In this document: piece by piece, positions 1 through 51,901 of the stretch
Layout of the letters: every line of letters starts with the position of its first letter
Position numbering within the stretch: the first letter of the stretch is position 1
Assembly: GCA_947629265.1 (NCBI GenBank)
Contig: CANRCZ010000002.1
Location: 6,567-70,566, forward strand
DNA from: an uncultured Bacilli bacterium
GTDB taxonomy: Bacteria > Bacillota_I > Bacilli_A > RF39 > UBA660
Length of the DNA stretch: 64,000 bases
Direction: 5' to 3'
Notes under the pieces: model-generated
The model's input: only the letters and a program-made list of their open reading frames with translations
Databases searched by the model: none
What the model was told of the DNA's origin: nothing
Made by a program: the position numbers and the translations under genes

Positions 1-7
1 GATAAAT

Positions 8-430
8 ATGAATGAATATAAATTTGAGGATATTAAATTAGGCTTAGAACATGAGTTTAAAGTTGAACTAACACAAGAAAAAATGGATGCATTTTTAAGT
101 ATAACAGGGGATATAAATCCTCTTCATAATAACAAAGAATTTGCATTATCAAAAGGTTATGAAGATAAAGTAGTGTATGGAATGCTTACCTCATCATTTT
201 TATCTACACTAGCAGGAGTATATTTGCCTGGAAAATATAGTTTAATACATTCAGTGGACATTCTTTTTAAAAGATCAGTGTATTTAAAAGATAGTCCTCT
301 TACCATAAAAGGAAAAGTAATTGATAAAAATGACATATTTAAAGAATTTACAATAAAATATGAGATACTTAACAATAATAATGTGAAAGTAACAAGAGGT
401 ACAATGAAAGTAGGGTTGTTAGATGAATGA
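8..430 (+). CDS. MaoC-like (hotdog fold) dehydratase
   Basis: 140 aa. Hotdog/MaoC-like motifs (INPLHNN..FA..GY...VVYGML). Overlaps the start of the next ORF, so operonic. Confidence 0.5.
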   Translation: MNEYKFEDIKLGLEHEFKVELTQEKMDAFLSITGDINPLHNNKEFALSKGYEDKVVYGMLTSSFLSTLAGVYLPGKYSLIHSVDILFKRSVYLKDSPLTIKGKVIDKNDIFKEFTIKYEILNNNNVKVTRGTMKVGLLDE

Positions 431-1157
431 AAAAGTATTATTAGTAACAGGTGCATCAAGTGATATTGGAGTAGAGTTAATAAAAAATATACATCAAAAT
501 TATGACTATATAATTGCACATTACAATAATGATAAAGGTGACCTTGTAGAATTAGAAGATAAGTTAAATGATAAATTAATATTATTATCTAGTAACTTTT
601 TAGATGAAGAAGATACAAATAAATTTGTAGATACAATTATAGAAAAAGGTATAATTCCTAATCATATTGTTCATTTGCCTGCTGGAAATTGTATTAATAA
701 AAAATTTCATCAATTAAATTGGGAAAAGTTTAATAAAGATTTAAATATTGGATTAAGATCTATAACTACTATATTAATGAAATTAATACCATTAATGTTA
801 AAGGAGAAAAATGGTAAAATAATTTTTATGCTAACATCTTATACATTAAATATTCCTCCTAAATATTTAACTAGTTATGTAACAAGCAAATATGCATTAT
901 TAGGATTGATGAAATCTTTGGCTCAAGAATACGCTAGTAAGGGAATAACAGTAAATGGAATATCACCAAGTATGATAGAAACTAAATTTTTAAATAGTAT
1001 TCCAGAATTAATTGTAAAACAAAATGCTGAGAATAGCCCTACAAAAGAAAATTTAAAGGTTAATGATGTCGTTCCAACTATAGAGTTTTTATTATCTGAT
1101 AAAGCAAACTGTATAACTGGCGAAAATATTGCCATTACAAACGGCAATATAATGTAG
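423..1157 (+). CDS. short-chain dehydrogenase/reductase (SDR) family oxidoreductase
   Basis: N-terminal Rossmann motif LLVTGASSDIGVELI. Catalytic Y-x3-K (YVTSKYALLGLMKSLAQEY). Confidence 0.6.
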   Translation: MNEKVLLVTGASSDIGVELIKNIHQNYDYIIAHYNNDKGDLVELEDKLNDKLILLSSNFLDEEDTNKFVDTIIEKGIIPNHIVHLPAGNCINKKFHQLNWEKFNKDLNIGLRSITTILMKLIPLMLKEKNGKIIFMLTSYTLNIPPKYLTSYVTSKYALLGLMKSLAQEYASKGITVNGISPSMIETKFLNSIPELIVKQNAENSPTKENLKVNDVVPTIEFLLSDKANCITGENIAITNGNIM

Positions 1158-1172
1158 GAAGTAGGTATTATT

Positions 1173-2702
1173 ATGAATTTGATATCATTTATATTTGCAA
1201 TGTTTTGTATTTTAACAATATTGGTTTATTTTGTAACACCTAAAAAAATAAGATGGATAGTATTATTAATATCAAGTTTATTTTTCTTATTTTATAAAAA
1301 TTTTAATGTAGTAACAATATTACAAGCTTTAACAATATTTTTATCAGCATATATATTTGCTAGATTGATAGAAAAGTATAAAGATACACATAAATCAAAA
1401 ATATTTTTAGTAATTAGTATTTTGTTAATATTATTAGTGTTGATGTATTTTAAGTATTCTAATTTATTTTTAATAACTATAGATCATATTTGTAATATTT
1501 TGAAAATAGATTATGATTTAAAACTTGTGAGTAGAAATTCATTAATCGGTCTTAGCTATTATTCATTAATTATGATTGGATATTTAACTGATGTTTATAG
1601 AGGTAGTGTTAAAGCTGAAAAAAATATATTTAAATGTGCATTATTTATGGCATATTTTCCAATATTAAATTCTGGACCTTTTATAAAATTTGAAAATATG
1701 AAAGACACATTATATGAAGGTCATAAATTCAGCTATAAGAGAATGTGTAATGGTCTTATCAGGATAGCTTGGGGAGCATTTAAAATATTAGTTATATCTC
1801 AAAGATGTGGATATTTTGTAAATACTGTTTGGGGTGATTTAGCTAAATTTAATGGTGTATACTCAATTATTGCAGCTTTATTGTTTCCGGTAGAACTGTA
1901 TGCTAATTTTTCAGGATCAATTGATATTATAATGGGAGTTAGTGAAATAATAGGTATAGGGTTGCCGGAAAACTTTGATTCTCCATTCTTTTCAAAAACG
2001 ATGACTGAATTTTGGAGAAGATGGCATATAACATTAGGAGCATGGCTTAGGGATTATATTTTTTATCCAATTCAAAAATCTAGTATTATACAAAAGCTAA
2101 ACAAATTTTGTAAATCTAAATTTGGTAAAAAGGTTGGAAAAAAGATACCATTATTTATTTCTATGTTTATTATGTGGTTATGTATAGGAATATGGCATGG
2201 TGGAGAATATCACTATATAATTGGATCGGGAATATTACAATTTGTAATAATATTTTTAGAAGATACATTAACACCAATATCTAATAAAATAAATGATAAA
2301 TTAGGAATAAACAGAGAAACTTTTGGATATAAACTGTATCAAGTAACTAGAACATTTTTATTATTTTCATTTACTATGATATTTTTTAGAGCTACTGGTG
2401 TTGCCGAAGCTATTGAATTTATAAAGAGCATGTTTGTTTCAAATCCGTGGGTACTTTTTGATAATGAATCATTATATACAGCTGGACTTGATATGTTAGA
2501 TTTTAGAATTTTAAATATATCATTAATAGTTTTATTCGTAATTGATTATTTAAAGACTAAATTTGATGTTAGAGAAAAATTATTTTCTCAAAATATAGTA
2601 TTTAGATGGACTGTCATATTTGTTTTATTATTCTCTATTATAATATTTGGATGTTATGGCGTAGGTTATAATGCTGCTGACTTTATTTATAGGGGATTTT
2701 AG
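1173..2702 (+). CDS. MBOAT family membrane-bound O-acyltransferase (DltB/AlgI-like)
   Basis: Polytopic membrane protein carrying the MBOAT hallmark FWRRWHITLGAWLRDYIFYP with the conserved His. Confidence 0.7.
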   Translation: MNLISFIFAMFCILTILVYFVTPKKIRWIVLLISSLFFLFYKNFNVVTILQALTIFLSAYIFARLIEKYKDTHKSKIFLVISILLILLVLMYFKYSNLFLITIDHICNILKIDYDLKLVSRNSLIGLSYYSLIMIGYLTDVYRGSVKAEKNIFKCALFMAYFPILNSGPFIKFENMKDTLYEGHKFSYKRMCNGLIRIAWGAFKILVISQRCGYFVNTVWGDLAKFNGVYSIIAALLFPVELYANFSGSIDIIMGVSEIIGIGLPENFDSPFFSKTMTEFWRRWHITLGAWLRDYIFYPIQKSSIIQKLNKFCKSKFGKKVGKKIPLFISMFIMWLCIGIWHGGEYHYIIGSGILQFVIIFLEDTLTPISNKINDKLGINRETFGYKLYQVTRTFLLFSFTMIFFRATGVAEAIEFIKSMFVSNPWVLFDNESLYTAGLDMLDFRILNISLIVLFVIDYLKTKFDVREKLFSQNIVFRWTVIFVLLFSIIIFGCYGVGYNAADFIYRGF

Positions 2703-2713
2703 GAGGAAAAGTT

Positions 2714-3772
2714 ATGCGTAAATATATGAACAAATGTTATATATATATATATATATCAAGGGTTATATTATTTATCATTGTATTTTGTATGCTTTGGAAT
2801 TCTGTTTTTAAGATATTAAATGTGGATGCTAATCCTATAACTGAATTTTATAAAGAAGATAAAAATACAATGGATATTGCATATATAGGTAGCAGTAATG
2901 TGTTTATGCATTTTAATGCAACTCTAGCGTATGACAAATATGGCTTCACTACCGGTCTTTTTTCGATAGGTTCAGCACCTTTCATGACTTCAAAATATAT
3001 GATTGAAGAAGTATTAAAGTATCAGAGACCTAAATTATTTATTATAGATTTATCAACTGTAGCTACCGATTCTAATATTGTGTTTACAGAAAATAATGTA
3101 AGAAATATATCTAATTCATTCAAGCAATCAAAAAATAGAATGAATTTACTTAATGAAATGTTGAGCAAGTTAAAAGCTGATGGTGTTGAAATTGAAAAAG
3201 ACTATACCTTCTATTATCCATTTCTTTTGTATCACAATTCTTGGAAATCTTTAACTCATGAAAAACTTACTAAATCTAAAAATTATTTTAAAGGTTACTA
3301 TTTGTCAGAAAAACAAGTTGCAACAATTAGTTATTCAGATTTGCAATGGGTTGATGGAAGTGAACGATTACAAGAATATAACAATAATGTACTAATCGAC
3401 ACCTTAGAATATTTAAAGAGAAAAAATATAGAAGTTATTTTTACTGTTCCTATTAAAAATTATGATTGGCACGTCAAAAGGAAAACTAACAGAGCAATAG
3501 AAATTATAAAAAGTTATGGTTTTAATTATATTAATTTTAATGATCTTGATACGAATATAGTTGATTTTTCCACTGATTTATACGATTGGGGACATTTAAA
3601 TGTGTATGGCGCTACTAAATATACATTGTATTTTTCAAAGTATTTAAAAGAAAATTATGATTTACCAGATCATAGAAATGATAATAAATATTCATCTTGG
3701 AAAAGTGAATACGAAAGGTTTAAAATAGAATTTAATAATTTAACTAAAAAAAATTTTGATGATTTAATTTAA
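2714..3772 (+). CDS. MBOAT-partner DltD/AlgJ/DHHW-like SGNH-type O-acyltransferase accessory protein, paralog 1
   Basis: N-terminal signal anchor, then YIGSSN... and a C-terminal DLYDWGHLNVYGATKYT motif. Lies immediately downstream of the MBOAT gene. The 5' end contains a (TA)9 tract. Confidence 0.45.
   Translation: MRKYMNKCYIYIYISRVILFIIVFCMLWNSVFKILNVDANPITEFYKEDKNTMDIAYIGSSNVFMHFNATLAYDKYGFTTGLFSIGSAPFMTSKYMIEEVLKYQRPKLFIIDLSTVATDSNIVFTENNVRNISNSFKQSKNRMNLLNEMLSKLKADGVEIEKDYTFYYPFLLYHNSWKSLTHEKLTKSKNYFKGYYLSEKQVATISYSDLQWVDGSERLQEYNNNVLIDTLEYLKRKNIEVIFTVPIKNYDWHVKRKTNRAIEIIKSYGFNYINFNDLDTNIVDFSTDLYDWGHLNVYGATKYTLYFSKYLKENYDLPDHRNDNKYSSWKSEYERFKIEFNNLTKKNFDDLI
2738..2756. repeat. (TA)9 dinucleotide tract inside the 5' coding region (encodes YIYIYI)
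   Basis: Read directly: tatatatatatatatatat, in frame as tgt tat ata tat ata tat ata tca. Confidence 0.8.
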
Positions 3773-3785
3773 AGAGGGAGATAAT

Positions 3786-4835
3786 ATGAGAACAAATGTT
3801 ATATATATATATATATATAAAATATTTATATTTATAATTGTATTTATATTATTATGGAATAGTATATTCAATATTTTGTGGATAAATAAAAGTCCAATAT
3901 CACTATTTTATAAAGAACCAAAAAATTCTCTAGATATTGTTTACATTGGTAGTAGTAATGTATATGCGTACTTTAATACAACACTTGCTTATAATCAATA
4001 TGGATTTAAAACAGGTATTTTTGCAACAGATATGATGCCATTTTTGACGTATAAATATGCGATAGAAGAGTCATCAAAAACACAAAATCCAAAGCTATAT
4101 GTAATTGATTTAGCTACATCGATTGCTTCTTTAGATGTTTATAGTGAAGGTGATTTTAGAAGAACAATAGATTCTTTTAAATTTTCTAAGACTAGACGTG
4201 ATTTAATAAAATCTATGTATGAATATAAGGATTATTTAAGTTTTGAAATTAATGATATAAATGATTTTTATTTTTCATACCTTATGTACCATAATAAATG
4301 GAAGGAAATAACTGAAAGTTCGTTTAATAATGAAAAAAAATTATTTAAGGGATACTTATTTACATACTTTCAAACTAGAAAAGAAAAACATATTAAGTAT
4401 GATTGGAATTGCACTGAAAAAAAATTGATAAATTATAGCAAAGAAATACTAGAAGATTTATTAGAATATTTAAATAAAAATAATATTAATGTATTATTTA
4501 CTATACCTGTTAAAGTGTATACATTAGAACAAAATCAATATTTAAATAATGTTACCAAGATAATTGAAAAAAATGGATATAAAGTAATAAATTTTAATAA
4601 AGTTGATGATTTAAATATTGATTTTGATAATGATTTATATAATGCAAGTCATTTAAATGTATATGGCGCTACTAAATATACATTGTATTTTTCAAAATAT
4701 TTAAAATCTAATTATAATTTGCCTGATCATAGAAATAATGAAAAATATTCATCTTGGAAGAGTGAATACGAAAGGTTTAAAACAGAATTTAATAATTTAA
4801 CTCAAAGAAATTTTGATGAATTGTTAGATAATTAG
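3786..4835 (+). CDS. MBOAT-partner DltD/AlgJ/DHHW-like protein, paralog 2
   Basis: Tandem paralog of the preceding ORF with the same C-terminal motif (DLYNASHLNVYGATKYTLYFSKYLK). The 5' end contains a (TA)10 tract. Confidence 0.45.
   Translation: MRTNVIYIYIYKIFIFIIVFILLWNSIFNILWINKSPISLFYKEPKNSLDIVYIGSSNVYAYFNTTLAYNQYGFKTGIFATDMMPFLTYKYAIEESSKTQNPKLYVIDLATSIASLDVYSEGDFRRTIDSFKFSKTRRDLIKSMYEYKDYLSFEINDINDFYFSYLMYHNKWKEITESSFNNEKKLFKGYLFTYFQTRKEKHIKYDWNCTEKKLINYSKEILEDLLEYLNKNNINVLFTIPVKVYTLEQNQYLNNVTKIIEKNGYKVINFNKVDDLNIDFDNDLYNASHLNVYGATKYTLYFSKYLKSNYNLPDHRNNEKYSSWKSEYERFKTEFNNLTQRNFDELLDN
3800..3819. repeat. (TA)10 dinucleotide tract inside the 5' coding region of the paralog (encodes IYIYIY)
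   Basis: Read directly: tatatatatatatatatata. Same relative position as in paralog 1. Confidence 0.8.
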
Positions 4836-4968
4836 TATAAAGATTTTTTTATAAAAATAATGTAAGAAATATTTCTGGTTAATTTAAATAACATAAAGAT
4901 AGAATAAATTTGTTTGGTGAATAGATATATACTATTAGTTATCAATTGCAATCTATATCAATAAATTA

Positions 4969-5286
4969 TTAATCTTTATTTTCAAATATTGCTACTGCGA
5001 TTGTATATTTCTTTTCATGGGAAATAGAAATATTAATATTGCTATTGTTAGAGCAATATGGTTTTCCATCTTTATCATTCAATATTTCAAAGTCTAAGAA
5101 ATTATATGTCTTAGTATTAGGCAGTGCCTTCATAATAGCTTCTTTACCAGCTATTCGGCCACATAAATATAGATATCCTTTGTTTTTAAATTCTAATTGT
5201 TCATTTTTAGTTAAAACTAGATTAATAAATTCTTCATTCTTGTCAACTAGTCTTTCGTTTTCTACAATATCACAACCAATATTCAT
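4969..5286 (-). CDS. acpS: holo-[acyl-carrier-protein] synthase (4'-phosphopantetheinyl transferase)
   Basis: N-terminal MNIGCDIVENER (GxDxxExxR motif). ISISHEKKYTIAVAIF matches the SxSHxxxyAxA region of AcpS. Length 105 aa. Confidence 0.65.
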   Translation of the reverse strand: MNIGCDIVENERLVDKNEEFINLVLTKNEQLEFKNKGYLYLCGRIAGKEAIMKALPNTKTYNFLDFEILNDKDGKPYCSNNSNINISISHEKKYTIAVAIFENKD

Positions 5287-5514
5287 AAAATCACTTCCTA
5301 ATCTCTATTATACTAAAAAAGTATATAAAGTAAAGTTAATATTTAATTTTCAATATAAAATAAAAATCCTTTAGTAATAATATTGGATTGTTTTCTAAGA
5401 TTTTATTAATTTATTTTACTAATAATTTTTTGTTAATATTAAAATTTATGTATGAATTATCATTTTACATAATTAGTAAATAATGTTATAATGTTTAATA
5501 TAAAGAGGTGGATT

Positions 5515-6960
5515 ATGCGAAGTAAAAAATTAAAAAGAAAAAGAATACGTATTGCAAGTATTGTAATATTTACTTTAATGGTAATAATGATGTGTATTTT
5601 TATGGGATATTTAAAATATACTAACGTTTTATCTATGAAATATTATGGAGCTATACTATTTATGTTTTTAGTAATTGTATTACTTACTATGGCTATAACA
5701 TTTAAAAAGAATATAAAAAGTGGCATTAAAATCTTTTTTGATGTAATAATGGTTATTATTACATGTTTATTGGTAGCTGGAATGTTTCCTATGAGTAAAT
5801 TAATGAACTTTATGGGAAACATTCAAGATGATAACAAAGAATATGAAAATTATTATGTTTTAGTTCTAAAAGATAGTAAATATGATAAACTAAATGATAT
5901 TAAAAATAAAAATATCGGAATTTTAAAAAGTGATGATAAAGAATATAAAAATGCTTTAGAAAAATTAAATGATACTGTAAAAACAAAACAAACAGATTAT
6001 AAAGATAGCACAGCTTTATCAGATAACTTGTTAAATAAAAAAGAAGAGGCTATATTCATTGATAGTGTTGGTTATTATATGACAGAAGAAGAAACCAGTA
6101 AATATTATGGTAAATTTAAAGTATTAGATACTATTAATATAGCAACTGAAAGCAAAATTGAAAAAGAAGATGTTAATGTTGTAAAAGAATCATTTAACAT
6201 TTATATTAGTGGTATTGATACATATGGTAAAATATCTACTAAATCAAGAAGTGATGTAAATATTATAGCTACAGTAAATCCTAAAACCAATAAGGTATTA
6301 TTGACTAGCATTCCACGTGATTATTATGTACAATTACATGGAACTACTGGATATAAAGATAAATTAACACATGCTGGTGTTTACGGAATTAATCAATCAA
6401 TTAATACTATTGAGGATTTATTAGATATTAAAATTAACTACTATATGAGGGTAAATTTTACAACATTAATTAAAATGGTAGATGTCATTGGTGGTGTGGA
6501 TATTAATTCTGATATGTCTTTTTATCCTTTATCTGATTCAACATGTTATATAAAGAAAGGTAATAATCATTTAAATGGTAAATGTGCTTTAGCATATGCA
6601 AGAGAAAGACATGCTTATGCCTCAGGAGATAGACATAGAGGACAAAATCAACAACAAATTATAACAGCTATGATTAATAAATTTACAACAAATAAATCAT
6701 TAGTTTTAAAATATAACAGTATATTTAATTCATTAGAGGGAAGTTTTCAAACTAATATGGGTACAAGTAAAATTACATCACTTGTTCAAAAACAAATTGA
6801 TTCTATGCCAAGTTGGGATATTGAATCATACAATCTAGATGGTAGTGGTAAAATGACATATACATATAGTTATCCAGGACAAAAATTATATGTAATGGTT
6901 CCATATGAAGAAACTGTAGAAACAGCTAAAACAAAAATAGACAGTTTATTACAGGAATAA
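5515..6960 (+). CDS. LytR-CpsA-Psr (LCP) family cell-envelope phosphotransferase
   Basis: N-terminal TM segments, then an LCP core (ATVNPKTNKVLLTSIPRDYYV...GVYGIN...MRVNFTTLIKMVDVIGGVDIN). Start moved to the ATG at 5515, preceded by AAGAGGTGG. The track start at 5491 has no SD. Confidence 0.7.
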   Translation: MRSKKLKRKRIRIASIVIFTLMVIMMCIFMGYLKYTNVLSMKYYGAILFMFLVIVLLTMAITFKKNIKSGIKIFFDVIMVIITCLLVAGMFPMSKLMNFMGNIQDDNKEYENYYVLVLKDSKYDKLNDIKNKNIGILKSDDKEYKNALEKLNDTVKTKQTDYKDSTALSDNLLNKKEEAIFIDSVGYYMTEEETSKYYGKFKVLDTINIATESKIEKEDVNVVKESFNIYISGIDTYGKISTKSRSDVNIIATVNPKTNKVLLTSIPRDYYVQLHGTTGYKDKLTHAGVYGINQSINTIEDLLDIKINYYMRVNFTTLIKMVDVIGGVDINSDMSFYPLSDSTCYIKKGNNHLNGKCALAYARERHAYASGDRHRGQNQQQIITAMINKFTTNKSLVLKYNSIFNSLEGSFQTNMGTSKITSLVQKQIDSMPSWDIESYNLDGSGKMTYTYSYPGQKLYVMVPYEETVETAKTKIDSLLQE

Positions 6961-7215
6961 TAAAATTAATTATCCCTGTAATAAATACCAATTATAGAAA
7001 ACGATTTTACTTTAATATAACAAATAAATACTATATAAAAGATTTATGAGTTCCTCATCAAATGTTTGTAGTTATCAAATATTTATTAAAGTTAATTTAA
7101 TAGTTGTGTTGATTTCAGTTTTTCTTTTAGTGGTGTGTCTTGATGGATGGTATCTGATATAAATAGTTATAGTTTTAAGTAATAATTATAACTTTGAATG
7201 ATAGGGTGGGTAATT

Positions 7216-8325
7216 ATGAAAAATTTAAAAGTTGATAGTAAACCAAAAAATCATCGCCAATCAAATATAGAATTACTTAGAATTGTATCGATGTTATTTA
7301 TTATAATGTTTCATTATGTATATAAAAGTGGATATACCTCACCAACATTTACATTTAATTATTTTATAGTAAAATTATTTTATATGCTTGGTGAATTAGG
7401 AGTAAATATATTTATTCTAATAAGCGGTTATTTTATGATAAAAGGTAAGTTTAGTATAAAGAAATTAATTAAATTATTATTAGAAGTAGAATTTTATTAC
7501 CTTTTTTCAGTGTTTATCGCTTCAAAACTAGGAATTTACACAGTTAGTCATACTTTTAAAGGTATATTTATGTTGTTCTTCCCAACTACTTTAAATAGGT
7601 ATTGGTTTATAACAGTTTACGTATTGATCTATATTTTAAGTCCATATCTAAATATACTAGCTAATAACATGGATAAAAAGACTTATCAAAAGTTTTTGTT
7701 TACTGTTTTATTAATATGGTGCGTGATACCAACTTTCTTTGGATTATTTTTTAACGGAACAGAATCAATGTTATATTATTCAAGATTTATCTGGCTTATT
7801 ATAATATATTTTGTTGGTGCTTATATAAGACTAAATCCTGTAAATATTTTTTCTAAAAATAATAATGCCATCATATGTTTTTCAATATCAACAGTGGCAA
7901 CTATTATAGGAATTTTAGGTTTTTATAAATTTAGAAATATTTTAGCAAATTTAGGTACAACAGAAATTGCATATTTTTGGCAACCAAATTCCATTTTAAT
8001 GTTTTTATTAAGTATTTCATTATTCACTATTTTTCTAAAGGTAAAAATAAACTATAATTTTATAATAAATAAATTAGCATCTACAACTTTAGCAGTCTAC
8101 ATGTTACATGATGGTATCTTGCAAGGGTATATTTGGAATAATATTTTTAAAACAAAAATGAGGCTCGGGGGGGGGTATTCTATAATTCATATATTGATTG
8201 CAACCGTAATAATATACCTAGTTGGCAGTGTAATAGATTTAATAAGACAATTCTTATTTGATAACGTACTAGATAGATTGATAAATAACTTTAAATCAAA
8301 AAAAGCATCAGTGCAACTTAATTAA
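7216..8325 (+). CDS. Acyltransferase_3 family (OatA/OafA-like) integral membrane O-acyltransferase
   Basis: NHRQSNIELLRIVSMLFIIMFH and about 10 TM segments are typical of acyltransferase family 3. ATG at 7216 follows GGGTGGG. Contains an in-frame G9 tract at 8167-8175. Confidence 0.6.
   Translation: MKNLKVDSKPKNHRQSNIELLRIVSMLFIIMFHYVYKSGYTSPTFTFNYFIVKLFYMLGELGVNIFILISGYFMIKGKFSIKKLIKLLLEVEFYYLFSVFIASKLGIYTVSHTFKGIFMLFFPTTLNRYWFITVYVLIYILSPYLNILANNMDKKTYQKFLFTVLLIWCVIPTFFGLFFNGTESMLYYSRFIWLIIIYFVGAYIRLNPVNIFSKNNNAIICFSISTVATIIGILGFYKFRNILANLGTTEIAYFWQPNSILMFLLSISLFTIFLKVKINYNFIINKLASTTLAVYMLHDGILQGYIWNNIFKTKMRLGGGYSIIHILIATVIIYLVGSVIDLIRQFLFDNVLDRLINNFKSKKASVQLN
8167..8175. repeat. poly-G tract (G9) inside the acyltransferase ORF
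   Basis: aggctc GGGGGGGGG tattc encodes RLGGGY. The same aggctYggggggggg context recurs at 40858. Confidence 0.85.
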
Positions 8326-8433: not shown

Positions 8434-10800
8434 ATGAAAATTAGTAAAATTAAAATAGATAGTTCATTTGCAAAATTTGAAGATGGTGAAATATTAGATT
8501 TATCAACTTTATCAGAAAAAAATCAAAATCGGGTTTTTATATATGGCAGTAATGGTGCTGGTAAAAGTTCATTGTCAAAATTATTTTCAATTGGTAATAT
8601 GAAATTAGATGGCAATTTAGATTATCAAAATAGACTATCTTTATTAAAAACTACCAATAATGATAATCCATTATCTGTAAAAATATATTATAATGAAGAA
8701 GATTATACGGAATTTAATAATGATATTATAAGGCCCAAAAGGATACCTGTTTTTAATAAAGACTATATTGATTCTAAAATAACCTATCAAACTGATTTTA
8801 AAAATAATAAATTTGATCAGCAAGAATCTACATATAGTATTGAATTAGAATCAAAAACCAATTATCATGAAAAACTGAAAGAATTTACAAGAAATAAAGA
8901 AAAATTAGATGAATTAGAATTAAAAATCAATAATGAAATAATGTCAGGCATTAATGAAACAACTAAGGATACAGGTACAACTAAGGCAAATAAGATATAT
9001 ATGGAGGAGTATAATTTTACACAGTTTATAAGTCTGTCAGCTAAATCAATTCCAACTAGTAATTTAGATAAATTAAGATTAGAGCATCAGCAGTTCATTA
9101 AAAATTTAAAAGATTTAACAGAAGAAGATATCATAGAATTTGAAATAAAAGAATTTGATAAAGAAAATAAAATTCAAAAAAGAATAGATGAAATAAACAA
9201 AACAATAAAATTTAATGAAGATAAATCGAAATTAGATTTTGTTAAAAAATATTTAGATAGATATAGTGATGAGGAAAGAGAGTGGAAGATAAAAGGAGCT
9301 ATTTTATTAGGTGATGCTGATAAATGCCCATTTTGTGAACAAAATATTAAAGATATTGGTATAGTTGAATCATACAAGAATTATGTTAATAGCAGTACTA
9401 AAAAAGTAGAAAATTTTATCGAAGGGCAAATTGAATTTTTTAAAAATAGTAATAACGTAGTTAATAACTATATTGAAGGATATATTTTAAAGGCTAAAAA
9501 TGTAGATAAAATTTTTAATACTAATATAGCTGAAGACATTGATTTATTTATTAAAGAATTAATGAACTTTAACAAGCGTGTAATCGAACTTTTAAATAAA
9601 AAATTAAATCCTGAAAATCTATATATTGATTGTTCTGATATTTTAGAGGAGATAGATTTTAATTTGTTTGAAGAATTGGAATATAACTATAATAATCTAG
9701 TAAAGAAAATAGAAGATATTAATAGAAAAGTTACTAGTAATAAAAACGAAAAAGATAAAAGAAATAGAGAATATTTAAGGACAACTGGTAAATATATTAT
9801 CTATAATAAAATTAGGGATGAAATAAAAGAGTATAACTCATTAAAAATTAAAGATACTTTATTATCATCAGAAACTGGAGAATTAAAATCAAAATATCAA
9901 AAAGATATTCAAGAAAAAAATGAACTGTTAAAAACTATCAATAGTATATTAGATGAATTTAATATTACTAATTATAGAGTTGATGAAAATTTTGATATAT
10001 TTTTAAATGATTATAATGTAAGCACAAATGTAGAAAAAATGCTAAGTGATGGTGAAAAAAACATGATAGCATTTGCATTATTTGCAGCAGAACTTAAATT
10101 GCTGTATACAGAATCCGAGAAAGAAATTATATTTATTGATGATCCTATTACATCTGTTGATTATCCTAATTTATACAATATATATAATTACCTTGTAAAT
10201 ATAATTGAAGAAAATAAATCATCACAAATTTTTATTACATCACATAATATCGTATTTTTAAATATGTTAAAATTTAGATATAGTAAAGAAGCTACATACT
10301 ATAAACTATACACAAAACACAATAAGACTTATATTAAAATGGATGATTGTAAGTATGATTCTATTTACTTGGAAAAATTAAAAGAAATTTATAAAATTTC
10401 TAAAGAAAATGAAATAGATAAAAATCAAAAATTATACATTCATAATTATTGTAGGTATGTACTTGAAACACTATCAAGATTTGAATATCCAGATCATAAT
10501 AATGATGCCGATTCTTCTAGAGAATACATCAAAAATCTAAAGAAAGATATTAAAAATGGAAAAGTAAATTTATCAATAAGTGAAAAGAAATTAGATAGTT
10601 TATTAAATATCATTAATAAAGGTTCACATGCAACTTTAGATGTTGTTCATGATGGTGAAATATTTACGGATGAACATTATATTAATGCTTGTAAACAGGT
10701 AATAAATATAATTCATGCTAAGTATGAGGGACAATATCAATTATTAACTAATTCATATTCATCTGATGATTCAAAGAAAGAAAAAATTTCAAAAAAATAG
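8434..10800 (+). CDS. RloC-like Rad50/ABC-type ATPase with C-terminal anticodon-nuclease-like region
   Basis: Walker A GSNGAGKSS, a long coiled-coil insert containing a CPFC (CxxC zinc-hook-like) motif, an ABC signature-like LSDGEK, Walker B IIFIDDP, then a C-terminal region with Arg/Glu/His candidates (NYCRYVLETLSRFE ... KGSHATLD). This 788-aa architecture matches RloC/PrrC. Confidence 0.5.
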   Translation: MKISKIKIDSSFAKFEDGEILDLSTLSEKNQNRVFIYGSNGAGKSSLSKLFSIGNMKLDGNLDYQNRLSLLKTTNNDNPLSVKIYYNEEDYTEFNNDIIRPKRIPVFNKDYIDSKITYQTDFKNNKFDQQESTYSIELESKTNYHEKLKEFTRNKEKLDELELKINNEIMSGINETTKDTGTTKANKIYMEEYNFTQFISLSAKSIPTSNLDKLRLEHQQFIKNLKDLTEEDIIEFEIKEFDKENKIQKRIDEINKTIKFNEDKSKLDFVKKYLDRYSDEEREWKIKGAILLGDADKCPFCEQNIKDIGIVESYKNYVNSSTKKVENFIEGQIEFFKNSNNVVNNYIEGYILKAKNVDKIFNTNIAEDIDLFIKELMNFNKRVIELLNKKLNPENLYIDCSDILEEIDFNLFEELEYNYNNLVKKIEDINRKVTSNKNEKDKRNREYLRTTGKYIIYNKIRDEIKEYNSLKIKDTLLSSETGELKSKYQKDIQEKNELLKTINSILDEFNITNYRVDENFDIFLNDYNVSTNVEKMLSDGEKNMIAFALFAAELKLLYTESEKEIIFIDDPITSVDYPNLYNIYNYLVNIIEENKSSQIFITSHNIVFLNMLKFRYSKEATYYKLYTKHNKTYIKMDDCKYDSIYLEKLKEIYKISKENEIDKNQKLYIHNYCRYVLETLSRFEYPDHNNDADSSREYIKNLKKDIKNGKVNLSISEKKLDSLLNIINKGSHATLDVVHDGEIFTDEHYINACKQVINIIHAKYEGQYQLLTNSYSSDDSKKEKISKK

Positions 10801-40815: not shown

Positions 40816-40861
40816 AAAAATAAAGGAGAGGAAGATAAAAAAATGAAAGAAAAAATAAGGC

Positions 40862-43800
40862 TTGGGGGGGGGTTATTCAACCCTAAAAAATAAGGGATTT
40901 ACGCTAATAGAGCTATTGGCAGTAATCGTTATATTAGCAATCATCGCAACGATAGCAGTGCCAATAGTATTAAACTTAATTGAACAATCAAGAAAAAATG
41001 CTTTTAAGGATAGTGTCTATGGCATTATGGAAGCAGCAGATCTATTCGTAGTATCAGAAAATTATAATCCTAATGATGAAATAGAATTTGTCTGCGATGG
41101 AGCATCTTGTTCTTTAGATGATGGTAGACAACTATCATTTAAAGGAGATGTACCTATAAGTGGAAGCATTCAAATAAAAGATAAAAATACTTTAGCATAT
41201 TTTATAAAAAGTAATGAATATTGTGCTTTAGGTACAAAAGAAAATTTAGATGTAAATAAAGACTGTACCAAACTAGATTATACAAAAGCTGAAATAGAAT
41301 TAAATTTAGTAAAGTCAACAACTAATAGTGTTATAGTATCATTTGAAGCGACAGATATCGAATCAGGTATATCTAATGTAGAGGTTAAATTAAATGATGA
41401 TGTAAAAAATTTTGAATATGAAAAATCACCAATTGTAACCAGTGGTGAAGCTGGTATAGTATTTGATAAACTAGAAAGTAATAAAGAATACACAGTAACA
41501 TTAACTGTAACAAATGGTAACTACTTAACTGAAACTAAAGATTTAAAAGTATCAACTAAAGAAATGAAAAATCCAGATTTAGTATCTATAAATGATCCAA
41601 CAGAAGCTCAAGATGGATATTTTAAAACTCAAACGATAAAAATAACTTTTGATAAAGAAAATGTATCAGAAACAACCAAACATTATGTAAAGACAACTAA
41701 AGAGGGTACAAGTAGTATAGGGGTTACAAAGAGATGTGGTAATATTGATGATACAGATACACCAGATGTTAATAAATGTGAAACTATAAATAGTACAACA
41801 ACATTAGCAGCAAATGTATGGTATGAAATTGATGGTGATTTAGATGTTAAATATGATAAGACAGATAAAACCACAGATAAAAATTTATATGCAATAACAT
41901 ACGATGGAACAAATTATAGTAATTCATCAACATATACCTTATCTAAAATAGATGGAACAAAACCAACATTAGAAATGAAAGAAATAATATCTAAAACAGA
42001 TAAGTTATCAATAGGATATACCGCAACTGATGATGAATCAGGAATAGAAACAAGAACATGTAAATATGGAACAACTCAAAGTAATTTAGATAAAGAAGGA
42101 GCAATAACTGATACCAATTGTGGCCTTACAAAATTAAATCCAAAAACAACATATTACTATAAAATATGTGTAACTGATAAAGTAGGTAATGAAGAGGTAT
42201 GTAAAGAAGGACATACAGATACACAAGCATTTATTAATCCAAAACTAGATTCAGTTATAAGCCCTACAACAGCAGTAAGTGGCTTTGTGAAGACACAAAG
42301 TATAACAGCAACATTTAACAATGCAAATATAGAAAATCCAAATCATTATATAAAAACAACAAGAGAAGGAACAGCAAGCGATAATGTAACAGAAAGTTGT
42401 GGAAGCGAGGACAATCCAGGTAATTGTACAAGTATTACAGGAACAACAACATTAAGTGCAAATACATGGTATAAAGTAAATGGAACTACAATTACGGTAA
42501 AATATGATAAAGCTAGTACAGCAACTGGAGATACTTTAACAGCCATAACCTATGATGGAACAAACTATAGTGGAGTAGCAACATATACATTATCAAAGAT
42601 AGATGCAACAAATCCAACATTTACAATGAATACAGCAACTTCAACAACAAATAGTATAAGTATACCATATACAGCATCAGATAGTGAAACAGGAGTAAAT
42701 GTAACATGTAAATATGGAACAACAAATGGAAACTATGGAACTAGTGGATCATTAGCAAATAATACATGTACATTATCAGGCTTAAAAGCAGGAACAACAT
42801 ATTACTATCAAATGTGTGCTAGTGATGGAGTAGGAAATGAAGCAACATGTCAAACAAGTAGTTTTGCAACTAAATCAATAACAGCACCAAGTATAACATT
42901 AACAACAAATACAGCAGGGACAGTAGCAAATTACGCATTAAAACAAGTGGCAGCAGTAACATTTAATAAAACTAATGTAACAAGCCCAACATATTATATA
43001 AAAACAACGAAAACAGGAACAAGTAGTTTGGGTGTAACACAAAGTTGTGGAAATGGAACTACACCAGGAACTTGTAGTAATGTAACAAGTACAACAACAT
43101 TAAGTGCAAATCTATGGTACAAAGTAAGTGGAAATGTTAATGTAACATATAGCACACCAAGTACAGCAACAGGAACACTATCAGCCATAACATACGATGG
43201 AACAAATTATAGTACAGCAGCAAGTCAAGCTATAAGTATGATAGAGCAATCTGCAACAAGTATATCATTAAATAAAACAAGTGCAACAATAAAAGAAGGA
43301 GAGACAACAACATTAACAGCAACAATATCACCAACTACAACAACAAATAAGAATGTAACGTGGTCGACGAATAATGCTAATGTAGCAACAGTATCAGGAG
43401 GAACAGTAACAGGAAAAGGAGTAGGAACAGCTACGATAACAGCAAAGACAGCAAATAATCAAAGTACAACAGCAACAATAACAGTACAACCCAAAGGTGA
43501 ATTATTATATGGTAAAGTATCTGTTGGAGATTACGTAGCCTATGATGCTGGAAAATGGGGTGCTGCTACTGATATACCAACATATTCAAGTTCCGTGAAA
43601 TTTGGAGGAAATGCAGCAAATACAAATAAAGGAATGAGTGCAAAATGTTATAATTCTACAACATTAAACGGATGGCGTGTACTTAAAAAAGAAAATAATC
43701 AAGTAACAATAGTCCACGCTGGCCAACCCGAATGTCATTTTCATTATTATTCTGAAATGAACGCTATAACTTTATTAAATAACAGAGCAAAACAATACAT

Positions 43801-44134: not shown

Positions 44135-44285
44135 TAACGAAGAAACTCTAAAATTATTTGGGGTTTTTTTGTTTTATATCAAAAATATAAATGTCGAAAA
44201 TTGTCGTACAATTTTTGATACAAATTTTTTCTAAAAAAAAGGAAATGAAAAAGTTTTGTCGTATCATATAAGTAGGGAGGGAAAA

Positions 44286-46301
44286 ATGAAAAGGTACGCA
44301 TTTGAAAAACAAGATGGTATAAAAGATTGTGGTGTAGCATGTTTAAAAATGATTATAAGATATCATAAAGGCTACGTTGGTACAGAACTATTAAGAGATA
44401 TGACTAAAACCGACAAAAATGGTGTAACGGCTTTCCACTTAGTAAATACATTAAATAAACTAGGTTTTAAATCTAGAGGTTTGAAAGTATCAATTGATAA
44501 TATCAAAACCTTACCAGCCATAGCTCATGTCACTATCGATAACACTTATAATCATTATGTCGTTATATACAATATCAATAAACAAAAAGAAGAAATCCTA
44601 ATAGCGGATCCAGCTAAAAGAATAATGAAAATGTCTTTTCAAAAGTTTAATGAAATATATAATAACATTATTATCGAAGCTATTCCATATAAAAAAATAC
44701 CCGTTATCAAAGATTATTCAATCTCAAAATTCATTCTAAATTTAATAAAAAATGAGAAAAAAATAATATGTATAATTCTAATAATGTCACTAATTACAAC
44801 GGTATTATCGATTATATCATCTTTCTATGTACAGCTATTACTAAATAATTTGAATCGAAAAATAATTATTCTCTTCTTTTTCATGAGTATATTGTTACTT
44901 ATATTAGAATATATAAAAAACAATATCTTAATTAAATTAGATAGTAAGCTTGATCGTAAACTGACGATGAGTACCTACCAAAACATTATAAACCTCCCTT
45001 ATCAATATTTTAAGAACCGAACAACCGGAGAAATAATAACTCGCTTAAATGACTTAAAAAGTGTCAAAAATACAATAAATAGAGTAATTATTACGATCTT
45101 TATCGATGGTATCCTAGTCTTTTTATCAAGTATCATTTTAATCAAAATAAATGTAGTGCTATTCTTAATAGCAGTAACGATTTTGATTATGTATATACTG
45201 ATAACAATCATATTTAATAATAAATTTAAATACGAAATAAACGATATAAAAGAAAAAAACGAATATCTAAATAGTAACCTAATCGAAAGTATCGATGGTA
45301 TTGAAACAATAAAAGGACTAAACCTCCAACCAGAATTTTTAAATAAAGTTGAAAAAATATATACAGATTATATGAAAGAAAGTATAACCCTAGATAAAAA
45401 AATAAATATTCAATTTACCTTAAAAGAAATGGTCAACACTATCGGTAACATGATTATTCTATGTGTAGGTGTATGGTTTATTCAAAAGAAGATAATGGAT
45501 TTCGGTAGTCTATTCACTTTCCTGACTTTAGTAGCTTACTTTTTAAATCCAATTAGAAATATTATCGACTTAAATATCGATATCACTGAATCAATCAGTG
45601 CTATAAAAAGAATCTTAGAACTAGATTACTACCAAAATGATCCTGGTAAAATAAACATTGATGAAATAAACAATATCGAAATAAAAAAACTATCTTATTC
45701 CTATAACGACTACAATTATATATTAAAAGATATCAATTTAAAAATATCTAAAGGTGAACATATTATGGTAGTTGGTACAAGTGGTAGTGGTAAATCTAGT
45801 TTACTAAAAATAATTAATAATTACTATGAAACCAAAAAACAAGTTTATATAAATGATAACGAAATAAACCAATTAAAAAATATACCAATTAATTACATAT
45901 CCCAAAACGAAATTTTATTTACTGACACTTTATTCAATAATTTAAAACTTAATCGTCAAATAGATAAAAACACTATTGAAAAAATATACAAAGAGTACGA
46001 AATCGATAAAATAATTCCTTTAAACGGATTAATCGAAGAAAATGGTTTTAACATATCCGGTGGTGAAAAACAAAGAATTGTACTCGCTAGAACATTATTA
46101 AATCAACCTAAGTTTTTAATTATCGACGAAGCCTTAAATCAAGTAGATATCAACATGGAAAGAAAAATATTAAAACAAATACTAAAAATCAAAAATTTGA
46201 CTTTAATATACGTATCACATCGTAATAACAACGTCGATCTATTTGATAGAGTTATTAAAATCGAAGACGGGTTCTTAAAAGAAGATATCAGAAAGGAATG
46301 A
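44286..46301 (+). CDS. peptidase-C39 domain ABC exporter (bacteriocin/double-glycine peptide processing transporter)
   Basis: N-terminal C39 domain with the catalytic Cys in DCGVACLKMII. Six TM segments. C-terminal ABC ATPase (GTSGSGKSS, LSGGEKQRIVLAR, FLIIDEA). ATG at 44286 follows GGGAGGG. Confidence 0.75.
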   Translation: MKRYAFEKQDGIKDCGVACLKMIIRYHKGYVGTELLRDMTKTDKNGVTAFHLVNTLNKLGFKSRGLKVSIDNIKTLPAIAHVTIDNTYNHYVVIYNINKQKEEILIADPAKRIMKMSFQKFNEIYNNIIIEAIPYKKIPVIKDYSISKFILNLIKNEKKIICIILIMSLITTVLSIISSFYVQLLLNNLNRKIIILFFFMSILLLILEYIKNNILIKLDSKLDRKLTMSTYQNIINLPYQYFKNRTTGEIITRLNDLKSVKNTINRVIITIFIDGILVFLSSIILIKINVVLFLIAVTILIMYILITIIFNNKFKYEINDIKEKNEYLNSNLIESIDGIETIKGLNLQPEFLNKVEKIYTDYMKESITLDKKINIQFTLKEMVNTIGNMIILCVGVWFIQKKIMDFGSLFTFLTLVAYFLNPIRNIIDLNIDITESISAIKRILELDYYQNDPGKINIDEINNIEIKKLSYSYNDYNYILKDINLKISKGEHIMVVGTSGSGKSSLLKIINNYYETKKQVYINDNEINQLKNIPINYISQNEILFTDTLFNNLKLNRQIDKNTIEKIYKEYEIDKIIPLNGLIEENGFNISGGEKQRIVLARTLLNQPKFLIIDEALNQVDINMERKILKQILKIKNLTLIYVSHRNNNVDLFDRVIKIEDGFLKEDIRKE

Positions 46302-50307: not shown

Positions 50308-51492
50308 GTGCATTTAAAATCAGTTATAAAAATTCGTATAACCGGTAAAAATACAAATCGCTTTCTAAGAAAAATTATAAACAAAAAAATCGAAATACTA
50401 GAAATAAACGAAATAGACTATAAAACCATCGACATAAAAATATACGATAAAGATTACGACGAAATAATAAAACTAAAAACTATCTACGAGGTAGAAATAA
50501 TCGACACCTATGGATATAAAAAACTAAAAAAAATAATCAAACTAAATAAATACCTAATCATCTTTATCATCATCGGTTTTATTATTTTATTATTTTTAAC
50601 CAATACCATCTTCGAGGTCGAGGTCATCCATAACGATAAAGAAATAAGAAAAATTCTAACCCAAGAATTAGATAAATACGGTATCAAGAAATTTAACATG
50701 GTTAAAAATTACCATCAAATCGAAAAAATAAAAGAAAATATTTTAAAAGATTATAAAGATAAAATAGAATGGTTAGAAATCGAAAGAATTGGAACTAAAT
50801 ACGTAGTTAGAGTCGAAGAACGTATACTAAATTCCAAAAAAGAAAAAACCGAACTAAGACATGTCGTCGCTAAAAAGAATGCCATCATCAAAGACGTCTA
50901 TGCCGAAAGTGGTGACGTCTTAAAAAGAAAAAACGACTACGTAAAAAAAGGTGACATAATTATAAGTGGGACAATATCCCTAAACGAAGATGTTAAATCA
51001 TCATTACCCGCTAAAGGAGTCGTATATGGTGAGGTGTGGTATAACGTCAAAGTTGAAATGCCATACTATAACTATGAAAAAATAAAAACCGGTAAAAAAA
51101 ATAACGTTATCACCTTAAAAATACTTAATCACCGGTTTGAACTTTTCAACTTTCATAAATATAAAACCAAAGATATTAAATCTAAAACCCTACTTAAAAG
51201 TAACCTAATTCCTATCAGTTTAAATAAAGAATTCCAAGAAGAAACCGTCGTAAGTGAAAAAGTTTATCTAAAAGAAGAAGCTATATCACAGACTGAAAAA
51301 AAAGCTAAAGAAGAAATTCAAAAAAAATTAGATGAAAAAGAAAAAATAATTAGTATAAAAAAATTGCATGTTAGCGAAAATAATAGTAAAATAATAGTAG
51401 ATTACTTTGTAACTGTATATAAAAATATAACAGACTATAAAAGTATCAGTATGGAGGAATTAGATGTACGAAATAGTGAACCAAACCAATGA
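50308..51492 (+). CDS. yqfD: sporulation protein YqfD-like
   Basis: 394 aa with a central TM segment. Synteny with yqfC and ybeY. Confidence 0.45.
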   Translation: MHLKSVIKIRITGKNTNRFLRKIINKKIEILEINEIDYKTIDIKIYDKDYDEIIKLKTIYEVEIIDTYGYKKLKKIIKLNKYLIIFIIIGFIILLFLTNTIFEVEVIHNDKEIRKILTQELDKYGIKKFNMVKNYHQIEKIKENILKDYKDKIEWLEIERIGTKYVVRVEERILNSKKEKTELRHVVAKKNAIIKDVYAESGDVLKRKNDYVKKGDIIISGTISLNEDVKSSLPAKGVVYGEVWYNVKVEMPYYNYEKIKTGKKNNVITLKILNHRFELFNFHKYKTKDIKSKTLLKSNLIPISLNKEFQEETVVSEKVYLKEEAISQTEKKAKEEIQKKLDEKEKIISIKKLHVSENNSKIIVDYFVTVYKNITDYKSISMEELDVRNSEPNQ

Positions 51493-51901
51493 AAAAATCG
51501 ACGAATTAACTATAGTTGACTCACTAGTTCAACAAGTAGTTAAAAAATTTGATCTACAAAATTCAGAATTCAATATTATCCTAGTCGATAACGAATACAT
51601 TCATAAACTAAATAAAGAATATCGCAATATCGATCGAGAAACCGACGTCATAACCTTTGCCTTAGAAGACGATAAAGACGTATGCTTAGATCATCGGATA
51701 TTGGGTGATATATATATATCAATAGATAAAGCCCATAGTCAATCCTTAGAATACGGTCATAGTTTCCTAAGAGAATTATCATTTTTAACCGTCCATGGTA
51801 TGTTACACTTATTAGGTTACGACCATATGACTAAAGAAGACGAAGCGGTAATGTTTAAACTACAAGATGAAATATTAGAAAGTGTTGGTATAAATAGATG
51901 A
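51464..51901 (+). CDS. ybeY: rRNA maturation RNase YbeY
   Basis: Zinc-binding HGMLHLLGYDH motif. Length 145 aa. Confidence 0.8.
   Translation: MYEIVNQTNEKIDELTIVDSLVQQVVKKFDLQNSEFNIILVDNEYIHKLNKEYRNIDRETDVITFALEDDKDVCLDHRILGDIYISIDKAHSQSLEYGHSFLRELSFLTVHGMLHLLGYDHMTKEDEAVMFKLQDEILESVGINR

Follow-up and report, generated by a model that had tools for sequence, protein, structure and literature searches.

Can two neighbouring genes of an uncultured gut bacterium be switched by the runs of alternating T and A that stand at their 5' ends? The question is raised by a 64-kb stretch of DNA from an uncultured Bacilli bacterium (contig CANRCZ010000002.1; 27.5% G+C), here called the window, in which two tandem paralogs for predicted SGNH-fold acyltransferases follow a DltB-like gene of the MBOAT family and carry nine and ten TA units, respectively, within their first 15 codons. 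A preliminary description of the window had proposed that the tracts are contingency switches for the acylation of a surface polymer. Our analysis favours this proposal: the TA tracts are probably hypermutable simple-sequence repeats, through which each paralog would be switched at the level of translation independently of the other. In the following, L-numbers denote the database loci or contigs and P-numbers the database proteins that were compared with the window.

Two long TA tracts at the start of tandem genes

The two genes and the elements at their 5' ends are as follows.

2701..2706, forward strand: Shine-Dalgarno sequence AGGAGG, 7 nt ahead of the ATG at 2714 (from the sequence)
2714..3772, forward strand: gene 1, predicted SGNH-fold, DltD-like membrane-anchored acyltransferase, paralog 1, 352 aa, ON
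2734..2736, forward strand: second ATG of gene 1, putative alternative start (from simulation)
2738..2756, forward strand: (TA)9T tract, codons 9-14, proposed slippage switch (from sequence, shuffles and simulation)
3786..4835, forward strand: gene 2, predicted SGNH-fold, DltD-like acyltransferase, paralog 2, 349 aa, ON; Shine-Dalgarno sequence GAGGGAG upstream
3796..3798, forward strand: second ATG of gene 2, putative alternative start (from simulation)
3800..3819, forward strand: (TA)10 tract, codons 6-11, proposed slippage switch (from sequence, shuffles and simulation)

Direct reading of the sequence gave (TA)9T at 2738-2756, inside the open reading frame (ORF) 2714..3772, and (TA)10 at 3800-3819, inside the ORF 3786..4835, with the flanks caaatgt-(TA)9-T-caaggg in gene 1 and acaaatgt-(TA)10-aaatat in gene 2. 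Gene 1 begins with AGGAGG-N7-ATG CGT AAA TAT ATG AAC AAA TGT (TA)9 T CA AGG, which translates into the N-terminus MRKYMNKC-YIYIYI-SRVILFIIVF; gene 2 begins with GAGGGAG-N6-ATG AGA ACA AAT GT followed by (TA)10, and its N-terminus is MRTNV-IYIYIY-KIFIFIIVF. The two runs had been described as encoding YIYIYI and IYIYIY, which was confirmed, and they lie far beyond chance. The twelve-mer (TA)6, TATATATATATA, matched nine times in the window, every time within one of the two tracts, whereas dinucleotide-preserving shuffles contained it 0.29 times on average and 4 times at most. These tracts were the only TA runs of at least 7 units in the 64 kb, and Tandem Repeats Finder scored the first with 100% matches. 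Other TA runs in the window were (AT)6 at 51708-51719 and (TA)5 at 61157. The former lies in a YbeY-like housekeeping ORF (51464..51901; GDIYISID), is the longest TA run outside both paralogs and serves as an internal control for the repeat length tolerated by this genome in ordinary genes.

The tracts had also been said to occupy the same codon position. Taken literally this does not hold, as codons 9-14 are covered in paralog 1 and codons 6-11 in paralog 2, but it does at the level of homology: when the shared helix FIIVF..LWN is aligned, the tracts are offset by four codons, and both stand directly ahead of the membrane anchor. The DNA context ACAAATGT(TA)n is common to both genes and is read in different frames (AAA TGT TAT vs AAT GTT ATA). 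The 5' end of gene 1 (2714-2737) looks composite, with ATGCGTAAATATAT resembling the ATGCGTA(AT)n start of an ortholog (L170, 4727-4733) and the following GAACAAATGT(TA)9 matching the leader of gene 2. This composite start suggests that the paralogs may have exchanged 5' ends.

A role of the TA runs as promoters was considered as well and found no support. In a promoter and terminator scan of positions 1-5600, promoter-like sites were no commoner than in shuffles, and terminators were not found.

Frame arithmetic and possible second start codons

We simulated the reading frames of both genes for n=5 to 14 TA units. The ATG served by the Shine-Dalgarno (SD) sequence was in frame at every third tract length only (n=6, 9, 12 for ATG 2714 of gene 1; n=7, 10, 13 for ATG 3786 of gene 2), and a single-unit change alters the frame. 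At the lengths found in the present assembly, both paralogs are in frame (ON).

The earlier statement that one TA unit frameshifts each gene is thus arithmetically correct, but in one of the two shifted frames a second ATG may take over as the start. These second ATGs (2734 and 3796) lie 2 nt 5' of each tract within a conserved AAATGTTATA context, have no SD sequence of their own and are out of frame at the present lengths. The one in gene 1 comes into frame at n=7, 10, 13 and that in gene 2 at n=6, 9, 12; at n=8, 11, 14, neither gene has any ATG in frame. Use of the second ATGs would make a three-level switch possible (full, low, off) instead of an on/off switch.

The same codons invite a different explanation, namely graded control, in which the ATG in frame or the number of Tyr-Ile pairs sets the translation level or the N-terminal length and the protein is not lost. 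The ATG 2 nt 5' of the tract is conserved in both paralogs in ACAAATGT(TA)n and is in frame in one shifted frame, the tract end of contig L170 (see below) forms an in-frame ATG, (AT)9G, and the in-frame lengths 7, 9 and 10 vary among genes and species, all of which would suit such control. However, the second ATGs have no SD sequence at a working distance and would be covered by ribosomes on the short upstream frame; one third of the tract lengths would still leave the gene without an in-frame ATG; and a (TA)8 copy in L001 has no rescuing start before codon 75. We therefore regard graded control as quite unlikely.

Tract length varies among relatives

The preliminary description had named an outcome that would speak against switching: a fixed tract length, with YIYIYI conserved in orthologs as part of the membrane helix. 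The opposite was found on both counts, for the length in orthologs and other relatives. Among the 120 homologs listed, out of 133 relatives, nearly all N-termini read MKK(I/L)IK..IIFLIIFC, and YI runs were confined to the two proteins of the window and the relatives closest to them (P0003, MRIYIYILK; P0005, MHRNIYIYRT). In one lineage HTHTH, encoded by (AC)n, stands in place of the YI run, and the gene-1 ortholog in L171 has no tract. YIYIYI as a conserved part of the helix was ruled out by these N-termini, which are mostly MKKIIK.

Differences in repeat number were found in a sister species (75-82% nucleotide identity to the window) represented by contigs L170 and L172 from two samples. Its gene-2 ortholog (81.6% nucleotide identity to paralog 2) carries (AT)7, and in its middle paralog the run is interrupted (ATATACATAAATATAC). 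Over 5,526 bp, the two contigs differ by 4 mismatches and 2 gaps (99.46% identity), and one gap falls on the tract in the gene-1 ortholog. In L172 this gene reads ATGCGTA(AT)8G and is in frame, with a product of 351 aa (MRNIYIYMLKAISF..); in L170 the tract is (AT)9 and the SD-served frame stops after 10 codons.

Further relatives gave the same picture. L001, L002 and L003 each contain two paralogs with the common context GGAGG..ATGCGAA(TA)nCTTAAAACA; the copy with (TA)7 is intact and its product has 350 aa, and the copy with (TA)8 runs into a stop after 14 codons. Computational removal of one TA from the (TA)8 copy of L001 restored an uninterrupted 350-aa ORF. The L001-type context was also present in L066, with (TA)8, out of frame. 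In another species with the same cluster type (L166-L169; contigs 97-99.9% identical), the first paralog has (AC)8 in L166 and L167, where it is in frame (363 aa), and (AC)10 in L168 and L169, where it is frameshifted; the second paralog carries (AC)10, (AC)9 and (AC)10.

The repeats of the family are not restricted to 5' ends. SGNH paralogs of another lineage have 3'-end repeats (DHR-NIYIYN-SW): four paralogs in L013 (2048, 6863, 7905 and 8964) have a 3' (AT)7 and keep the conserved C-terminal tail, and in two of the three paralogs in L044 (1098, 2141 and 3203) a 3' (AT)8 replaces the tail. In L008, (G)10 at approximately 4930-4947 lies in the part of an SGNH paralog coding for the membrane anchor, and this copy is frameshifted; P0085 is a truncated call of it, and the neighbouring paralog P0024 reads WGGVF at this place. 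ORFs of 342-368 aa lie behind out-of-frame (AC)n and (AG)n leaders. The out-of-frame alleles are otherwise intact, as expected of switchable rather than decayed genes. Several kinds and positions of repeats in one family, together with intact out-of-frame alleles, are the pattern expected of contingency loci.

In the window's own species the comparison was confined to L005, the sole other sample, which covers gene 1 only; it is 100% identical and also carries (TA)9. The repeat-number polymorphism that had been suggested as a check was therefore observed in the sister species and in relatives, whereas gene 1 of the window species had n=9 in both samples. A scan of JGI metagenomes for ACAAATGT(TA)7 yielded 82 loci with zero family members by tblastn, and we regard these 82 loci as chance matches.

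The contigs have coverages of only 1.9-5.2x, and errors of short-read assemblers in low-coverage dinucleotide runs might mimic length differences. Such an artefact is extremely improbable, as independent samples agree: (TA)7 and (TA)8 were assembled from three samples for the pair of L001-type paralogs, (AC)8 and (AC)10 were each obtained from two samples, and (TA)9 is common to the window and L005. Tracts of 14-20 nt are, moreover, well inside one read.

A neutral origin deserves more weight. Slippage and AT bias could have built TA runs that are merely tolerated in a segment under loose constraint ahead of the membrane anchor, and the frameshifted relatives would then be decaying redundant paralogs and not reversible switches. 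The genome is very AT-rich, Tyr and Ile suit a membrane-proximal segment, repeats are absent from most of the family, and arrays of paralogs provide redundancy; moreover, reversibility in this strain is something that we infer. Yet runs of 9-10 units occur nowhere else in the 64 kb, and the housekeeping YbeY-like gene has only a short run, (AT)6. The frameshifted copies have no second lesion, and the length difference between the 99.5%-identical contigs is one of only 6 differences. Finally, this one family and surface genes nearby have acquired differing repeats (5' (TA)n, 3' (AT)n, (AC)n and poly-G), and varied repeats of this kind are the usual signature of selection for mutability. On balance we consider a neutral origin unlikely.

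The paralogs as predicted partners of a DltB-like MBOAT protein

The gene ahead of the paralogs encodes a protein with a terminal motif of interest.

1173..2702, forward strand: DltB-like MBOAT acyltransferase, 509 aa (Pfam MBOAT, 32.5 bits, cut-off 27)
2682..2699, forward strand: FIYRGF, the last six MBOAT codons, matching the FXYXXF 'acyl shuttle' (from the sequence)

Paralogs 1 and 2 are 50-51% identical and are arranged head to tail directly after the MBOAT gene. They had been called DltD/AlgJ-like, a designation that stands for the fold and falls for the sequence. Neither paralog matched any model in Pfam or NCBIfam, those for DltD and AlgJ included, and a family profile searched against all PDB chains gave spurious weak matches only. 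A confident AlphaFold model, however, has a membrane-anchored SGNH fold with DltD as the top Foldseek matches, and the proteins have the fold and the catalytic Ser and His of an extracytoplasmic SGNH partner. For the MBOAT protein, the best NCBIfam model was LTA_dltB at 132.7 bits against a cut-off of 375, which is below equivalog level. The window proteins thus do not belong to the DltD and DltB families in the strict sense.

In the FXYXXF motif, the Tyr carries the acyl group from the MBOAT protein to its SGNH partner (PMC12148441). The MBOAT C-termini at related loci read FIYRQF, FIYRNF and FIYQQF. With the modelled SGNH fold, DltD as top Foldseek match and a DltB-like MBOAT protein ending in FXYXXF, the earlier reading of the paralogs as MBOAT partners is borne out; the model supports a predicted partner that is DltD-like in fold and architecture.

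The family is small. Only 133 relatives of the paralogs were found in a search of 5.8 billion proteins, and a scan of species-representative genomes located the family almost only in rabbit-gut ('Lapin') metagenome-assembled genomes (MAGs) labelled as uncultured Bacilli or Clostridia.

A carrier protein and the predicted pathway

The surrounding genes of the cluster are the following.

8..430, forward strand: MaoC-like (R)-hydratase/dehydratase, first gene in the window (Pfam MaoC_dehydratas, E=1.9e-9; NCBIfam HadB-like)
423..1157, forward strand: short-chain dehydrogenase/reductase (SDR), FabG-like ketoreductase (Pfam adh_short_C2, E=7e-34; NCBIfam 3-oxoacyl-ACP reductase-like, below equivalog cut-offs)
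4969..5286, reverse strand: holo-acyl carrier protein (ACP) synthase, AcpS (Pfam ACPS; NCBIfam pantethn_trn above cut-off)
5491..6960, forward strand: LCP (LytR-CpsA-Psr) glycopolymer-to-peptidoglycan ligase (Pfam LytR_cpsA_psr, E=7e-41; NCBIfam CpsA-like)

The LCP gene marks the neighbourhood as one of wall-polymer biogenesis. The cluster had been described as lacking DltA and DltC. Neither the window nor the related clusters were found to contain DltA or another adenylating enzyme; for the window's own species, the sequence covered begins at the ACP. The missing carrier protein, on the other hand, turned out to be an artefact of the window edge. Exact-protein look-ups with the MaoC protein and paralog 1 led to same-species contigs of 0.9 and 1.4 kb. 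One of them, L004, from another sample, encodes an identical MaoC protein (100% identical to the window over 539 nt) and carries at 3-233 a gene for a PP-binding carrier protein, which ends 113 nt upstream of MaoC and is matched by general ACP models, not by DltC. The presence of AcpS, encoded on the opposite strand, fits a carrier-protein pathway. The conclusion that this is not a canonical dlt operon stands: no DltA was found, the MBOAT protein scores far below the LTA_dltB cut-off and its partners match no DltD model.

In related clusters, FkbH occupies the loading position. The gene order is FkbH - ACP - SGNH - MaoC - SDR - MBOAT - SGNH x3 in L001 and FkbH - ACP - (glyoxalase) - MBOAT - SGNH x2 in L166, with the FkbH and ACP heads at L001 1-1148 and L166 3038-5060; FkbH exceeded its NCBIfam cut-off in these relatives (250.5 against 146.65 bits). 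In L166, a glyoxalase-family gene replaces MaoC and SDR, and the conspecific contigs L168 and L169 do not have this gene.

FkbH enzymes use 1,3-bisphosphoglycerate to charge an ACP with a glyceryl unit (PMC7489565), and the biosynthesis of FR901464 and lankacidin involves a dehydratase-ketoreductase pair that turns glyceryl-ACP into lactyl-ACP (PMC4765723). By analogy, MaoC and the SDR would make lactyl-ACP. Within the library searched, no paper connected FkbH to an envelope MBOAT protein.

Other repeats in the window and in rabbit-gut relatives

Beyond the paralogs, two further long repeats were found, both of them (G)9, which is expected 0.02 times per window. All four long repeats of the window lie in surface-related genes (4/4), which lends further support to the switch reading. 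The first (G)9 is in the following gene.

7198..8325, forward strand: acyltransferase-3 (AT3) membrane protein with (G)9 at 8167-8175, in frame (Pfam Acyl_transf_3)

This AT3 gene adjoins the LCP gene, and its (G)9, a homopolymer, is a second candidate switch in the neighbourhood; simulated G8, G10 and G11 replace the last ~50 residues. Right after it, at 8434-10800, lies a gene for a 788-aa AAA_13/AAA_21 (AbiEii-like) ATPase, which may be a defence-type gene beside the surface-modification cluster.

The other (G)9, at 40864-40872, lies in the leader of a gene for a 1,090-aa prepilin-type protein (40843-44134; N_methyl/GFxxxE, fn3 and Big_2). At G9, the SD-served ATG at 40843 leads to a 16-aa peptide only; simulated G8 or G11 gave MKEKIRLGGGYSTLKNKG-FTLIE... 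From its sequence this looks like an adhesin or pilin gene in phase OFF. A C39-peptidase ABC exporter gene follows at 44256..46301.

In the rabbit-gut MAGs we also noticed a conserved 5' leader, ATG..AAACC(C/G)TTGA(G/T)(G/A)CTGT-(AC)8-21-GG(A/G)TA, whose peptide reads ..ETL(D/E)(T/A)V(HT)nGY; one copy has (AG)19 instead. The leader precedes genes for AT3 acyltransferases, MaoC dehydratases, a DUF2334 deacetylase-like protein and members of the SGNH family. It was found at L011 5384, L022 6891, L027 1834/3128/8024, L029 1933/8051, L030 6951, L035 1058/4150, L036 12828, L041 4146, L045 2017, L049 1751, L057 8134, L060 2015 and L166 7030/8125. In about half of the copies the leader is out of frame and the long ORF is otherwise intact. 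Judged by its recurrence, the leader looks like a portable repeat cassette.

Four copies consist of the leader only (L027 3128-3169, L029 8051-8084, L045 2017-2037 and L060 2015-2041), with products of 23-29 aa and no long ORF downstream in any frame; those in L045 and L060 are followed by a hairpin with a T-run. These four may be orphan leaders, small peptides or remnants. We considered whether the (AC)n leaders are His/Thr attenuator peptides and rejected this for most of them because the ON leader is fused in frame to the enzyme; the four leader-only copies are excepted.

Discussion

In this study we asked whether the TA tracts of two tandem SGNH-fold paralogs can act as switches. Our comparison with relatives lends good support to the interpretation as contingency loci: the tracts are rare, the encoded run is not conserved and the tract length changes, with consequences for the reading frame, in relatives.

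We propose that replication slippage adds TA units to each tract or removes them and that each single-unit step would shift the gene body into or out of frame with the SD-served ATG. One of the shifted frames would be served by the SD-less second ATG, probably with weak expression, and the other would be left without an ATG, so that each gene may exist at three levels, full, low and off. Three-unit changes would only add or remove Tyr-Ile pairs ahead of the anchor, which this stretch should tolerate. As to the chemistry, the free-standing ACP would be made holo by the adjacent AcpS and probably loaded with a glyceryl unit by an FkbH enzyme like those of the related clusters. Glyceryl-ACP would then be turned into lactyl-ACP by the MaoC dehydratase and the SDR, by analogy with the dehydratase-ketoreductase chemistry of starter units. 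The DltB-like MBOAT protein would pass the acyl group to the Tyr in its C-terminal FIYRGF shuttle, from which an SGNH paralog in the ON state would accept it on its Ser for esterification of a wall polymer. Independent switching of the two paralogs would yield a population with mixed surface acylation patterns.

Several observations weigh against this interpretation. The window's own tracts show no length variation: (TA)9 recurs in L005, and for gene 2 there is a single observation. The compared sequences are metagenome contigs at 1.9-5.2x coverage with one consensus length per sample, from which rates and reversibility cannot be derived. It is conceivable that the frameshifted copies in relatives are pseudogenes of recent origin, and the second ATG could blunt the OFF state. 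Approximately 90% of the family members function without the repeat, which is therefore not required for function. FkbH was not seen in this species, in which the visible sequence (window and L004) stops at the ACP. Lastly, we infer the acyl group, its acceptor and the distinct specificities of the paralogs.

Phase variation driven by repeats is textbook knowledge where a few Gram-negative pathogens and the 15B/15C capsule of the pneumococcus are concerned. To our knowledge it has hardly been documented in commensal gut Bacillota, on which the literature deals mainly with DNA inversions. In Haemophilus, Neisseria and Campylobacter, phase variation is combinatorial, with several repeat-bearing genes decorating one surface polymer and giving rise to mixed populations. 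The switches of these Gram-negative pathogens are mostly homopolymer or tetranucleotide repeats; those described here are dinucleotide repeats in an uncultured member of the gut Bacillota.

The pneumococcal capsule acetyltransferase is an AT3-type enzyme. In its gene, wciZ, (TA)8 is in frame (15B) and 7-13 units (15C) abolish O-acetylation of the capsule, and the switch between 15B and 15C is reversible during infection (PMC7101100). Both that system and ours combine a Gram-positive organism with a TA run in the coding sequence of an enzyme that O-acylates, or is predicted to O-acylate, a surface polymer. In contrast to the single pneumococcal acetyltransferase, which uses acetyl-CoA, the window encodes two tandem SGNH partners of an MBOAT protein in a putative carrier-protein pathway, and its tracts are located in the first 15 codons next to a second start codon. 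Pneumococcal switching has been shown experimentally, whereas the evidence presented here comes from sequence comparison alone.

In Helicobacter pylori, the number of 5' CT repeats sets the frame and the on/off state of oipA and other outer-membrane genes (PMC10564699). The position of the dinucleotide repeat in the 5' coding part, just past the start codon, is common to both cases. Unlike our case, H. pylori is Gram-negative, the unit is CT and the targets are adhesins or porins, not polymer-modifying enzymes.

With the Dlt system (DltA, DltC, DltB, DltX, DltD) and with PatA/PatB, the locus shares an MBOAT protein, a membrane-anchored SGNH partner and the FXYXXF acyl-Tyr shuttle. The carrier protein as putative donor and DltD as the closest solved fold in Foldseek are further likenesses to Dlt. 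Unlike in Dlt, neither DltA nor DltX was found, the shuttle motif is fused to the MBOAT protein as in PatA, loading is probably by FkbH and not by an adenylating enzyme, and there are several SGNH paralogs per MBOAT. Unlike PatA, the locus has an ACP, as in Dlt; MBOAT/SGNH pathways other than Dlt lack a carrier protein (PMC12148441).

The principle of switching by slippage is already known, and what is new is the target family, the SGNH partner of an MBOAT protein, for which there is no family model. Also new are the several individually switchable partners behind one MBOAT protein, possibly the second start codon, and the pathway context, which unites a carrier protein and a fused shuttle motif that have been assigned to separate classes (PMC12148441).

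On a more speculative level, a lineage of uncultured, very AT-rich Bacillota of the rabbit gut might run a whole repertoire of surface genes switched by portable dinucleotide leaders, (TA)n ahead of the membrane anchor and the (AC)n cassette in the form ATG..AAACCCTTGA(G/T)(G/A)CTGT-(AC)9-21-GGATA. The window would then contribute combinatorial, possibly three-level switching of two acceptor-specific SGNH transferases on a hitherto undescribed, carrier-dependent, non-Dlt line of wall-polymer esterification that leads from FkbH via the ACP and, through MaoC and SDR, lactyl- or glyceryl-ACP to an MBOAT protein with a fused Tyr shuttle. We put this wider picture forward tentatively, as possible but rather less than probable.

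Uncultured gut Bacillota appear to vary their wall chemistry by slippage, which bears on the escape from phages and antibodies. It also affects how strain-level metagenomics should handle MAG genes that appear 'frameshifted'. What the locus suggests is an MBOAT-SGNH pathway with a carrier donor, a fused shuttle and probable FkbH loading, outside the two-class picture of Dlt and acyl-CoA users. One MBOAT protein with several individually switchable partners would amount to a natural experiment on what the SGNH protein contributes to acceptor specificity.

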